From IMG/VR virus record IMGVR_UViG_2681813263_000015: a stretch of 4,580 bases of DNA, one strand, 5' to 3'. A program made the position numbers and the translations under genes. Shown piece by piece: positions 177 to 4,580 of the stretch (within the stretch, counting starts at the first letter, position 1; every line of letters begins with the position of its first letter). The notes under the pieces were generated by a model, which was not told the origin of the DNA, ran no database searches, and worked only from the letters and a program-made list of their open reading frames with translations. This DNA is from a virus (lineage: Duplodnaviria; Heunggongvirae; Uroviricota; Caudoviricetes).

Positions 177-1259
177 ATGAAAAAATTAACAGTGGCAATT
201 TCTGCTGTAGCTGCATCAGTACTGATGGCGATGTCTGCTCAGGCAGCTGAAATTTATAATAAAGACAGTAACAAGCTGGATCTGTACGGGAAAGTTAATG
301 CTAAGCACTACTTCTCCTCTAATGATGCAGATGATGGTGATACTACTTATGCCCGTCTTGGCTTCAAAGGTGAAACCCAAATCAACGATCAACTGACTGG
401 TTTCGGTCAGTGGGAATATGAATTCAAAGGCAACCGCGCTGAATCTCAAGGTTCCTCCAAAGATAAAACCCGTCTTGCCTTCGCTGGCCTGAAATTCGGT
501 GACTACGGCTCCATCGATTACGGCCGTAACTACGGTGTAGCATACGACATCGGTGCGTGGACTGACGTCCTGCCAGAATTCGGTGGTGACACTTGGACTC
601 AAACAGATGTGTTCATGACTGGTCGCACCACTGGTGTTGCAACTTATCGTAACAACGACTTCTTTGGTCTGGTTGATGGTCTGAACTTTGCTGCTCAGTA
701 TCAGGGTAAAAATGACCGCACTGACGTAACTGAAGCTAATGGTGATGGTTTCGGTTTCTCCACTACTTATGAGTATGAAGGATTCGGTGTAGGTGCAACC
801 TATGCTAAATCTGACCGCACTAATAATCAGGTTATCTACGGTAACAACAGCCTGAATGCATCTGGTCAAAATGCTGAAGTATGGGCAGCTGGTCTGAAAT
901 ATGATGCGAACAACATCTATCTGGCTACCACCTATTCTGAAACCCAGAACATGACTGTTTTTGGTAATAACCATATTGCCAACAAAGCACAAAACTTCGA
1001 AGTAGTTGCACAATATCAGTTCGACTTCGGTCTGCGTCCGTCCGTTGCTTACCTGCAATCTAAAGGAAAAGACTTGGGTGCGTGGGGTGATCAGGACCTG
1101 GTTGAATATATTGATGTAGGTGCAACCTATTACTTCAACAAAAATATGTCCACTTTTGTTGATTACAAAATCAACCTGATTGATAAGAGCGATTTCACGA
1201 AAGCATCTGGCGTTGCTACCGATGATATCGTTGCTGTAGGTATGGTTTACCAGTTCTAA
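177..1259 (+). CDS. nmpC: Outer membrane general porin, NmpC/OmpD family (360-aa precursor)
   Basis: The ORF track gives 117-1259; I place the start at ATG 177 ([29 protein letters not shown]), preceded by AAGGG 6 nt upstream. It has a classic Sec signal peptide with AQA-A cleavage motif, a Gly/Tyr/Asn/Asp-rich beta-barrel composition and the porin C-terminal signature ...VGMVYQF ending in Phe. The sequence is near-identical, from memory, to E. coli NmpC / Salmonella OmpD. Confidence 0.9.
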
Positions 1260-2758: not shown

Positions 2759-2921
2759 GATTCCTCCTTGCTGCCAGTCGCAACCATTTTTTATCAACCA
2801 GGCTAGCGGTATATCCGAGCAGTGTTGGTATTTCGGATGGCTTCAGCTCAGGCTTACGCTTACGACGATTTGATACTCTGTAGATGTGCCCGTTCATGAC
2901 ACGAATAAGCGGTGTAGCCAT
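2751..2921 (-). CDS. ninE: NinE-like protein (56 aa)
   Basis: Hand translation gives [56 protein letters not shown], then TGA. Its ATG overlaps the ybcN stop (TAATG) and its 3' end overlaps the ybcO start by 8 nt. AGGAGG lies upstream. Position and length match DLP12 ninE. Not in the ORF track. Confidence 0.75.
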   Translation of the reverse strand: MATPLIRVMNGHIYRVSNRRKRKPELKPSEIPTLLGYTASLVDKKWLRLAARRNHG

Positions 2922-3376
2922 TACGCCTCCTGCTTATCGCGCAGCTGCTGGTATTCACAGCTCTGCGGAATTGTCAGGTGGCAGCCGATATTCATCGCCC
3001 AGGCTTCGACTTTGCACAGGAAGATGTACATCTCGCCGGTTTCCAGCTCTGACGTATGGCGGAGGGATTGGACGGTGGTGACCTCGCCGGACACGACATC
3101 TACACGGTCTTTGCTTTCGTAGCCGAGATAGGTGTGCTTCATCGCGTCTTTGACCCACTCAGGCGTAGCGAAGGTCTTGCCGCGGGCGATGAGATATTCG
3201 CTGATCTCCGTGTACCACATGTGGCTGAGCGCGTTCTGCGACAGGCTGCGCTTCTCGCGCCACGGCTTAACCTGCAGGCGTAAGCATTGCCCGGCATCCA
3301 GCAATGGCTGAATCTGCTGGCCGATGGCCGCGAAGTTACCGCGATGGAGTTTGATGCCGTCTACTGGCAGAGTCAT
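2921..3376 (-). CDS. ybcN: YbcN / NinB-family protein (151 aa)
   Basis: The full ORF MTLPVDGIKLHRGNF...EYQQLRDKQEA has GGGAGG 4 nt upstream of the ATG. It contains a KRSLSQN motif resembling the RSLDQN motif of lambda NinB (Orf-family recombination mediator). Matches K-12 YbcN from memory. Confidence 0.85.
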   Translation of the reverse strand: MTLPVDGIKLHRGNFAAIGQQIQPLLDAGQCLRLQVKPWREKRSLSQNALSHMWYTEISEYLIARGKTFATPEWVKDAMKHTYLGYESKDRVDVVSGEVTTVQSLRHTSELETGEMYIFLCKVEAWAMNIGCHLTIPQSCEYQQLRDKQEA

Positions 3377-3468
3377 ACGGCCTCCCTAACGGAAACCGCA
3401 GAATGCAGAAAATCGCAGGTGCATTTCTGCATCTGTGACAAGGTGATGAGTTCAGATTGTGGTCGCAT
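3373..3468 (-). CDS. Small ORF (31 aa), ylcH-like, translationally coupled to ybcN
   Basis: Hand translation gives MRPQSELITLSQMQKCTCDFLHSAVSVREAV, then TGA. The stop overlaps the ybcN ATG (ATGA) and AGGGGA lies 6 nt upstream of the ATG. It occupies the position of ylcH in K-12. Identity to ylcH is not verified, and a short ORF could arise by chance. Confidence 0.4.
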   Translation of the reverse strand: MRPQSELITLSQMQKCTCDFLHSAVSVREAV

Positions 3469-3487
3469 TTAAGTCCCCTTAAATGCG
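3464..3487. repeat. Perfect 10-bp palindrome with 4-nt spacer
   Basis: CGCATTTAAG-tccc-CTTAAATGCG. On the minus-strand RNA it would place the putative SD (GGGA) of the ylcH-like ORF in the loop and its AUG in the stem. It lies at the junction between the phage block and the AT-rich cassette. Confidence 0.5.
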
Positions 3488-3560
3488 CAGAAGTCACCGG
3501 AGTTGTTCAGGCTCCGATGAGAGGATTATGGCGGATTGATTACGATAAATCAAAACTATC

Positions 3561-3604
3561 TTGAAGCCAAAACAGTGATCTTCGCTTTAAAAACCTTGTA
3601 TACT
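3561..3604 (+). promoter_or_regulatory. Candidate sigma70 promoter region for the AT-rich cassette
   Basis: A -10-like TATACT at 3599-3604 (immediately preceded by TG) lies about 36 nt upstream of ATG 3641. A -35-like TTGAAG at 3561-3566 is present but not at canonical spacing to that -10. AT-rich surroundings; weak call. Confidence 0.25.
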
Positions 3605-3640
3605 TTCACCTAATCACAGCCAGAACTATGGATCTAACCA

Positions 3641-4018
3641 ATGACCAACAAAGAAAACAAAGATAAATATATTAACAAGTTCAAGAAAGAGCTTTCAAAA
3701 TATATACAACCAACTGCTGGAGTGGACATTCAATTATTTAACTCTAAGGATGGTGGTGGTGTAATTAAAGCCACTTTGAATAGAAGTGGAAAAAGAAAAT
3801 CATCTATTGCTGGTAATTTTACTAAATTAGGTGAGGCAATTACCTCGAGTGGGCAGAGGGTTTTTGGTGGTGATCTATCAAATGTGAATTTTTACGGAAC
3901 AAATACGATTTTTGATGGAGATACAATATTTTTAATTAAATCACCTGATTCAGAGGAGTGGTCATCACAAAAAGCTTCCAAAGACGTAGAGGGCATCGTA
4001 TTTGGAGGGAAAAAATGA
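3641..4018 (+). CDS. Hypothetical small soluble protein (125 aa), Gly/Lys/Ser-rich, no recognised domain
   Basis: Clean ORF with an in-frame stop immediately upstream (TAA at 3635-3637): MTNKENKDKYINKFKKELSKYIQPTAGVDIQLFNSKDGGGVIKATLNRSGKRK...GIVFGGKK. There is no signal peptide or TM segment and only a weak SD (GGAT). Composition is AT-rich relative to the flanking phage genes. Its stop overlaps the start of the next gene. Confidence 0.6.
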   Translation: MTNKENKDKYINKFKKELSKYIQPTAGVDIQLFNSKDGGGVIKATLNRSGKRKSSIAGNFTKLGEAITSSGQRVFGGDLSNVNFYGTNTIFDGDTIFLIKSPDSEEWSSQKASKDVEGIVFGGKK

Positions 4019-4443
4019 TTAACATTACTACTAAGGATGGCACTCAAGTCAGTGGTGAAGTAAGAGATCTAGTAATTCTTCTTGAAACTGATGGAAAAAC
4101 GGTGTCTGATTATTTGCAGCCAATCCCTCCCAAAAAAGATACACACTGGAGCATGATTTTCATTCCGGTAGCAATTTATATACTACTTAATCTTGTATAC
4201 ATTATTGCTCACCCATTATTTCCTGAAAAATATCTAAAAACATCAACATCTATATTTCTATTCATTTCCTTCATATTAAGTGCAATAGTAGCATATTTTG
4301 TTTTCCATAAGCATAAATCTGCCACTCTATCCATATGCAGCTTAGTGTTCTTAGTGTTAATTGTAGGTGCTAACGTAGGGTTTATCAGTTACAGCGACCT
4401 AACACAAAAAGCGACGCAAAAATTAGATAGTTTGTCTAAATAA
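4015..4443 (+). CDS. Hypothetical small membrane protein (142 aa): soluble N-terminal region of about 45 aa plus three predicted TM helices
   Basis: The track ORF is 3958-4443; I place the start at ATG 4015 (MINITTKDGTQVSGEV...), preceded by GGAGGG at 4005-4010 and overlapping the upstream stop (ATGA). Hydrophobic stretches at about residues 46-67, 78-98 and 104-125 are separated by short charged loops (EKYLK, HKHK). KK before TM1 suggests an N-in topology. Confidence 0.65.
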   Translation: MINITTKDGTQVSGEVRDLVILLETDGKTVSDYLQPIPPKKDTHWSMIFIPVAIYILLNLVYIIAHPLFPEKYLKTSTSIFLFISFILSAIVAYFVFHKHKSATLSICSLVFLVLIVGANVGFISYSDLTQKATQKLDSLSK

Positions 4444-4450
4444 TTATGTT

Positions 4451-4471
4451 GCCATGCGAAGTATGCATGGC
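4451..4471 (+). terminator. Stem-loop downstream of the cassette (possible weak terminator)
   Basis: GCCATGC-gaagtat-GCATGGC is a perfect 7-bp stem starting 8 nt after the stop codon. The following sequence (TGCATGTCTGCCTTCCATTT) is only moderately U-rich, so this is not a canonical intrinsic terminator. Confidence 0.3.
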
Positions 4472-4580
4472 TGCATGTCTGCCTTCCATTTAAAATGGGC
4501 TAAGACCTATAACCCTAAATATTATTCTTTATTATCTTCTTTACCACTTCGGTGATGCTGCCAACTTACTGATTTAGTGT

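Follow-up and report, generated by a model that had tools for sequence, protein, structure and literature searches.

A DLP12/phage-82-type prophage remnant with a probable variable cargo slot beside the nin leader

Why does a lambdoid prophage turn abruptly AT-rich just beyond a short open reading frame (ORF) that resembles ylcH, and is this a place at which related prophages exchange accessory genes? The question is raised by the IMG/VR record IMGVR_UViG_2681813263_000015, a stretch of 4580 bases to which we refer throughout as the window, and in particular by its positions 3373-3545. Comparison with related prophages indicates, with good confidence on our part, that this interval is the conserved head of the nin region, and that it leads up to a mosaic joint with a variable slot beyond. 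In the window, the far side of this joint is taken up by an AT-rich cargo module of about 1 kb (3555-4551) which carries two genes, A and B, on the strand opposite to the ybcN operon.

The end of conserved sequence and the slot beyond it

The features on which this reading turns are the following.

2921-3376, minus strand: ybcN, an Orf/NinB-family recombination mediator of 151 amino acids (aa) (Pfam NinB, PHROG 72, NCBIfam PRK09741)
3373-3468, minus strand: ylcH-like small ORF of 31 aa, from the ORF list; its stop codon overlaps the ybcN start (ATGA)
3554/3555: left mosaic joint, from nin leader to cargo, at the shared end of homology
4522-4551, minus strand: 3' end of replication gene P, with 8 extra codons (RSGKEDNKE) and the stop codon from the cassette module
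4551/4552: right mosaic joint, at the last sense codon of P

The preliminary description of this DNA had reported a turn to AT-rich composition about 60-80 nt beyond the ylcH-like ORF, and a G+C profile bears this out: a two-segment likelihood scan of 2921-4443 places the change point at 3534 (2-lnL interval 3512-3545), with a G+C content of 0.559 to its left and 0.339 to its right, and the log-likelihood ratio of 36.2 was reached by none of 500 shuffled sequences. By feature, the values are 0.577 for ybcN, 0.472 for the leader and ylcH, 0.341 for A and 0.336 for B. The same description let the phage-type sequence end with the ylcH-like ORF. This ORF is real and has the core LSQMQKCTC in common with YlcH/orf33 of K-12 and phage 82 (in an alignment that also took in O157), but the conserved sequence extends 86 nucleotides (nt) beyond it, to 3554/3555, so that its true end lies 10 nt past position 3545, where the interval had been closed.

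It is at 3554/3555 that homology with K-12, O157:H7, phage 82, HK639, CobraSix and XJ5.2 stops. We compared 125 loci anchored on the ybcN of the window (38 species genomes, 80 viral contigs and 7 annotated records), and the homology ends at 3553-3555 in 47 of them, at 3541 in 11, at 3512 in another 11 and at 3497-3499 in 8, while in 6 it is continuous through the joint because these carry the same cassette. Since one joint nucleotide is common to many unrelated right-hand sequences, this boundary has been reused in evolution. The other end of the module is equally sharp. P of the carriers is 238 aa long and ends in ...NGMVRSGKEDNKE, that of phi80 and HK639 is 230 aa long and ends in ...NGMV, and DNA homology picks up again exactly at the codon for this Val, the last sense codon of P. 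The stop codon native to the phi80/HK639 type of P has been replaced by that of the cassette module, and the extension of P is also seen in E. coli A7 (L001, 10223-10252).

What lies between these borders differs from prophage to prophage. Where the prophage is intact, as in E. coli A7 and BH100N, A and B make up the entire gap between P and ylcH-ybcN and lie on the opposite strand. Among 5426 complete E. coli genomes, the cassette occurs in 46 at an identity of at least 99%, always in this synteny, and two further genomes have a 72%-identical allele; at the same joint, 3210 genomes carry ybcM-ybcL of the K-12 type and 301 the O157-type filler. The preliminary description had named ybcL and ybcM as the cargo upstream of ylcH/ybcN in K-12, and these genes indeed start immediately past the joint, the order from there on being ybcM, ybcL, ybcK, ylcJ, emrE, ren and P. 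In O157:H7, a filler of 280 bp stands in place of ybcM-ybcL at the same nucleotide and is followed by ybcK. The slot of XJ5.2 contains six small genes and a DnaB-type helicase, that of phi80 a gene like N15 gp45, and those of HK639 and CobraSix theta-like and other small genes. Cassette alleles whose proteins are 67-76% identical to A and B are found in this slot, ahead of DUF1367 or NinB, in further lambdoid prophages of Enterobacteriaceae. In one of the compared loci, the slot between P and NinB (L144, 3665-9261) has the look of a small accessory island, with A-B accompanied by DndB-like, HNH, colicin-like and immunity-like genes.

In the 90 loci with enough flanking sequence, the DNA adjoining the boundary falls into 55 distinct clusters. 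Only three of these have a G+C content below 0.40, namely the present cassette, which is the lowest, K-12 ybcM-ybcL and the O157 filler. Most occupants are early-operon genes on the same strand as their surroundings (Ea22/DUF551-like mosaic proteins, theta-like genes, small ORFs) and not AT-rich morons. The slot measures from 869 to 5597 nt, with a median of 2758 nt, and lies next to replication genes of the P, DnaB or DnaC type. The AT-rich cassette is thus far from being a syntenic fixture of typical composition in essentially all related prophages (46 of 5426 genomes, 6 of 125 loci), and the suggestion that lambdoid prophages exchange accessory genes at this site holds up as a pattern of variation.

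Two points weigh against taking this pattern as evidence for a recombination hotspot that receives insertions. In none of 81 loci did P adjoin the leader directly, as it would at an empty site; the shortest slot without the cassette is that of phi80 with 869 nt, and the cassette hence looks like a replacement and not like a simple insertion. Furthermore, diversity at a site can stem from tolerance of change, without a raised rate of recombination. Gene shuffling between the replication genes and orf/ninB has already been described (Curtis et al. 2014, PMC4118853). As a mosaic joint that opens onto a variable accessory slot beside the nin leader, the junction itself is ordinary and of a known kind.

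A close counterpart of the cassette is ybcL-ybcM of DLP12 in K-12, in the gap that also holds emrE and ybcK: it sits in the same slot, starts exactly at the position equivalent to 3555 and is AT-rich as well (0.364). However, its genes are unrelated to A and B (they encode a Raf-kinase-inhibitor-like protein and an AraC-type regulator), they lie on the same strand as ybcN, and they are found in 3210 genomes as against 46 for A-B. In concept, the site also resembles fixed-position cargo slots between conserved anchor genes, with which it shares interchangeable accessory or defence cargo and the use as an anchor for discovery. In contrast to fixed-position defence slots, ordinary early-region genes dominate here, and the sample examined showed no enrichment of recognisable defence genes, a point that was not systematically tested. 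The site provides a precise anchor, conserved at the nucleotide level and formed by the nin leader and, across the slot, by the end of the replication gene, and it can be used for harvesting cargo from lambdoid prophages of Enterobacteriaceae. Because the contents of the slot are mostly ordinary early-region phage material, the added value is limited to the A-B module and the structured leader RNA, neither of which alters the current understanding of phage mosaicism.

The two genes of the module

Within and directly behind the module, the following features can be distinguished.

3555-3640, plus strand: cassette 5' region, with a -10-like TATACT at 3599-3604, about 36 nt upstream of the start of A
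3641-4018, plus strand: gene A, 125 aa, soluble and basic (pI 9.5); RefSeq WP_000182282, 'hypothetical'; phrog_18061, unknown function
4015-4443, plus strand: gene B, 142 aa, its start overlapping the stop of A (ATGA); RefSeq WP_000608370, 'hypothetical'; phrog_16940, unknown function
4451-4471, no strand assigned: hairpin after B, GCCATGC-N7-GCATGGC, from folding, conserved in all three cassette alleles
4497-4515, minus strand: terminator-like hairpin with a T-rich tail directly after the P stop codon, from a consensus scan and folding

In B, an N-terminal domain of some 40 aa is followed by three transmembrane helices (hydropathy segments 43-70, 74-100 and 100-129), and its AF2 model likewise has three long helices. 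Close homologues of A and B are confined to Enterobacteriaceae, where they are present in well-studied strains such as the uropathogenic E. coli (UPEC) 536. In a profile search, the family of A comprises about 111 representatives (clusters at 50% identity). Behind each remote A that we inspected (about 30% identity), an overlapping gene of 125-128 aa encodes three membrane helices after a short N-terminal domain, and this partner aligns to B (hhalign, 77% probability, E = 2e-5). Such remote pairs are located in a prophage, after ligA, and in islands beside toxin-antitoxin-like genes, among them a Gp49/HTH pair. Since an overlapping three-helix partner always stands behind a remote A, the comparison argues that A-B is a conserved two-gene unit.

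A belongs to no known family, and neither A nor B has a match in Pfam, NCBIfam or PADLOC, B obtaining only sub-threshold hits to membrane families in Pfam. In PADLOC-DB 2.0, which includes Rex-type and other two-gene systems, no family reached E <= 1 for either protein, and when 72 members of the A family were compared with PADLOC, there were only four single-member hits at chance level. A profile of the A family found no relative in Pfam, in PADLOC or among the sequences of the PDB. The accessions of A and B are absent from the literature searched and from the DefensePredictor supplements, and no sequenced phage in a collection of 50,697 records encodes A.

What might such a pair do in a prophage? 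Lambda RexA/RexB is an abortive-infection pair, and RexB has about the size of B. Like A-B, it is a two-gene unit of a lambdoid prophage that combines a cytoplasmic protein with a small polytopic inner-membrane protein. Unlike A-B, rexAB lies in the immunity region; furthermore, A has less than half the size of RexA, and no similarity between the two pairs was detected by sequence or profile. A-B could be expressed in the lysogen from a promoter of its own and could act at the inner membrane against superinfecting phage, by exclusion or abortive infection in a Rex-like or toxin-antitoxin-like manner, with A controlling the membrane protein B. Judged only by position, strand, composition and architecture, such a membrane-targeted role is a tentative proposal; a toxin-antitoxin-like function, or a conversion function of some other sort, has about the same likelihood.

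Several findings sit uneasily with the idea of an independently expressed exclusion system. A consensus scan called no full sigma-70 promoter and no -35 element upstream of A; diverged alleles of the cassette have TGATATAGT at a similar distance from A, in the position equivalent to TATACT. The hairpin after B, the core of which is also found downstream of B in two other loci (L017 and L144), has no clean T-run on the plus strand. The AF2 model of A is of low confidence (pLDDT 58.5), and structure prediction was uninformative overall. A-B resembles none of the known defence proteins, Pfam families or solved structures that were searched.

An alternative that we take seriously, although we would stop short of calling it probable, is that A-B is not directed against phages at all, and is either a toxin-antitoxin pair that stabilises itself or a provider of some lysogenic-conversion or membrane function, for example in stress tolerance or in competition. 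The order of the two genes, first that for a soluble protein and then, overlapping it, that for a small membrane protein, would suit an addiction module as well, the remote pairs lie beside the Gp49/HTH toxin-antitoxin pair and GNAT genes, and the same slot elsewhere holds emrE and the colicin-like/immunity pair. Defence, for its part, is argued solely from the opposite-strand position in a prophage, the AT-richness and the Rex-like architecture, with no PADLOC hit.

The A-B block also invites comparison with the morons (sensu Hendrix and Juhala) of lambdoid phages, examples of which are bor and lom of lambda and gp15 of HK97. Like a moron, it occupies its map position in only a minority of related phages, differs in composition from its neighbours (0.34 versus 0.56) and lies between functional units. 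In contrast to a moron, it is placed on the opposite strand inside the early-right operon, has rewritten the last codons of P, and, in the 81 loci inspected for an empty site, is not inserted between genes that are adjacent in relatives. Transcription signals of its own are probable, with a putative promoter and terminator.

The conserved block next to the joint

On the minus strand, the interval from which we started reads as a promoter-like element, a leader with two hairpins and ylcH, which together form a conserved block of about 160 nt.

3525-3553, minus strand: promoter-like element directed towards ylcH/ybcN, with -35 TTGATT (3548-3553), a 17-nt spacer and -10 CATAAT (3525-3530)
3494-3520, minus strand: leader hairpin 1, a covarying stem with the conserved 9-nt loop CCUGAACAA
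3464-3487, minus strand: leader hairpin 2, a 10-bp stem with a GGGA loop

Both hexamers are kept across 66 unique variants of the leader. In the record of phage 82 (X92588), a putative -35, a putative -10 and, at hairpin 1, a 'possible regulator-binding site' are annotated. A perfect palindrome, TTGATT-N6-AATCAA (3536-3553), overlaps the -35-like hexamer exactly at the mosaic joint. Its half-sites are conserved and its spacer is variable, which suggests a candidate protein-binding site; the spacing does not fit an FNR/CRP-type consensus. In terms of activity, a point to be held against the element is that genetic work in K-12 suggested that the nin operon of DLP12 is without an adequate promoter (PMC4118853), and by this token the element may be weak or repressed.

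In hairpin 1, 7 of 10 pairs show changes on both sides among 34 distinct variants, and 97.2% of cells are paired; none of 500 shuffles reached the observed values, and controls slid along the alignment were 21-41% paired. Many of the pairs are G.U, from which it follows that the structure is one of the minus-strand RNA. Hairpin 2 is paired in 97.3% of cells and has both-side changes in three pairs. At its top, this second hairpin carries the Shine-Dalgarno sequence of ylcH (GGGGA), which spans the closing pair and loop, and its 3' arm contains the AUG of ylcH. The two hairpins together (3462-3524, minus strand) fold with -25.8 kcal/mol (z = -5.17). By its overlapping stop and start (ATGA), ylcH is predicted to be translationally coupled to ybcN. 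We read the conserved block as the regulatory leader of the nin operon, based on these patterns of conservation.

Could the block instead have been kept as a signal for recombination, as a linker or 'boundary' sequence or as a site at which a recombinase acts? The joints at its two ends (at about 3394-3400 and at 3554/3555) invite this thought, and so does its identity of about 94% in phages such as HK639, the flanking genes of which are dissimilar at the DNA level. However, the stem of hairpin 1 keeps its pairing through both-side changes around a conserved loop, and its many G.U pairs would be C.A mismatches on the other strand, all of which points to a sense-strand RNA; the -35/-10 hexamers and the Shine-Dalgarno/AUG arrangement are conserved as well. 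In addition, short conserved blocks serve as general crossover sites without any special signal (PMC3945230). We therefore consider this alternative improbable and retain the regulatory leader as our reading of the block.

Known RNA elements were also considered. No covariance model of Rfam matched at E <= 1 anywhere in the window. The hairpins are no intrinsic terminators of the tR2 type, since hairpins 1 and 2 are followed by GACUUCUG and CACAAUCUG and not by a U-run. A nut-like site finds no support for hairpin 1, the motif of which occurs once per locus and is absent near PR/PL in the regions covered. The leader is not explained by svsR, a small RNA of a lambdoid prophage, either, since svsR is located within cI. 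A related leader stands before DUF1367 in Klebsiella-type prophages (L017-L022, at about 5707-5735), with the loop CCUGAGCAA or UCUGGACAA.

The ren/ninR gap of lambda corresponds to the present slot in lying between P and an Orf-family gene, upstream of ninE, rusA/rap and Q, and in being non-essential, variable and tightly packed, with ATGA overlaps. It differs in its right-hand border: lambda has ren and then, just ahead of ninB, a hairpin with a T-run that resembles an intrinsic terminator (lambda 40596-40632; L147, 1097-1133), whereas the phage 82/DLP12 type has the promoter-like element, two hairpins without a T-run, and ylcH.

Both subjects of interest at this locus may be drawn together in one speculative proposal, which as a whole we regard as rather doubtful. 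A-B would be the E. coli member of a widespread two-gene module and may be a prophage exclusion or abortive-infection system, and hairpin 1 with its loop CCUGAACAA would be a cis-regulatory RNA, of a protein-binding or antitermination type, that controls the recombination genes and Q.

The making of the joints and the wider window

The left joint lies immediately upstream of the -35-like hexamer and the right one at the end of P, so that both coincide with the borders of functional units, a pattern to be expected where selection acts on random joins. Near 3394-3400 lies a third joint: the window matches BH100N (L002) at about 100% identity from this point up to 4551, and to the left of it, ybcN is only 60-88% identical to the BH100N allele; the match with HK639 begins at 3394. 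A leader and cassette of about 100% identity beside a ybcN of 60-88% identity show that leader and cassette have moved between ybcN alleles by recombination within the conserved block. In this context, it has been reported that Red/RecA-dependent exchange takes place between infecting phages and DLP12, the nin region included (PMC3945230).

These observations would fit a scenario in two stages. Rare illegitimate joins would survive only on the margins of functional units, in this case where P ends and where the nin promoter and leader set in, and the conserved flanks would then allow homologous or homeologous recombination (Red/RecA) to carry the block between phages. On our reading, the stretch from the end of P to 3554/3555 is a non-essential slot with contents that vary from phage to phage, and in this case it holds only the module of about 1 kb (3555-4551), which is spliced in so precisely that the stop codon of P is replaced.

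It may be objected that the change in composition is ordinary phage heterogeneity, and that A and B are regular AT-rich early genes instead of exchangeable cargo. The early regions of lambdoid phages are indeed patchworks, most occupants of the slot are small phage genes (G+C 0.42-0.56), and A and B belong to PHROG families. We nevertheless judge this very improbable, because 119 of the 125 loci that share the ybcN and leader lack the cassette, as do more than 98% of the E. coli genomes with this nin block, because the cassette has the lowest G+C of the 55 clusters and is directed against the surrounding operon, and because A is not found in the collection of sequenced phages.

The whole window is a remnant of a lambdoid prophage of the DLP12/phage-82 type between two IS1 ends. 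The outer features are these.

1-30: IS1A end, an exact match to the other terminus of the 768-bp IS1A named below
177-1259, plus strand: ompC/nmpC-like porin gene, intact in the window
4551-4580: IS1 terminal inverted repeat, an exact match to the end of the 768-bp IS1A in E. coli CV839-06 (L146)

The right IS1 lies within 1 nt of the joint between the cassette and P, and the remainder of P and everything beyond it have been removed. In E. coli CV839-06, an independent IS1A is present inside A (L146, 2687-3454, equivalent to about position 3786 of the window), with a 9-bp target duplication, TGAATAGAA. The AT-rich cassette of 1 kb thus has two IS1 hits in or beside it, inside A in CV839-06 and at the right joint in the window. 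IS1 has a preference for AT-rich DNA. That the cassette itself arrived by transposition or another element-specific route, for instance mediated by IS1, with the joint as a transposon end, might be suspected from these IS1 copies, but we give it next to no credence, since 45 carriers with identical joints have no IS1 in or beside the cassette, the copy in CV839-06 has its own target duplication inside A and hence is a later insertion, the preference of IS1 for AT-rich DNA explains both hits, and terminal inverted or direct repeats were not seen by eye at the two joints, where no repeat search was run.

In the K-12 locus, a copy of IS5 follows directly downstream of the porin gene. The window contains two masked runs of N, one downstream of the porin gene (1314-1346) and one in the 3' part of quuD (1477-1621), and because of the latter this Q-type gene is not readable in full. 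After the porin gene, the minus-strand genes follow in the order quuD, ylcG, rusA, ybcO, ninE, ybcN and the ylcH-like ORF, and after these come the overlapping plus-strand genes A and B and the 30-nt end of P on the minus strand. YbcN, the first long gene of the nin block, scores slightly over the cut-off for Pfam NinB, at 8e-51 for PHROG 72 and at 261 bits for NCBIfam PRK09741, and is labelled 'YbcN family protein' in RefSeq; both this profile match and its position upstream of ninE, rusA or rap place it in the Orf/NinB family. Other accessory positions of related prophages adjoin the repressor: in two Klebsiella-type prophages (L020 and L022, 11685-12378) a KilA-N/BstA_C gene is found there, and in E. 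coli A7 (L001, 13679-15327) a pair of ImmA/IrrE and DUF4411 genes.

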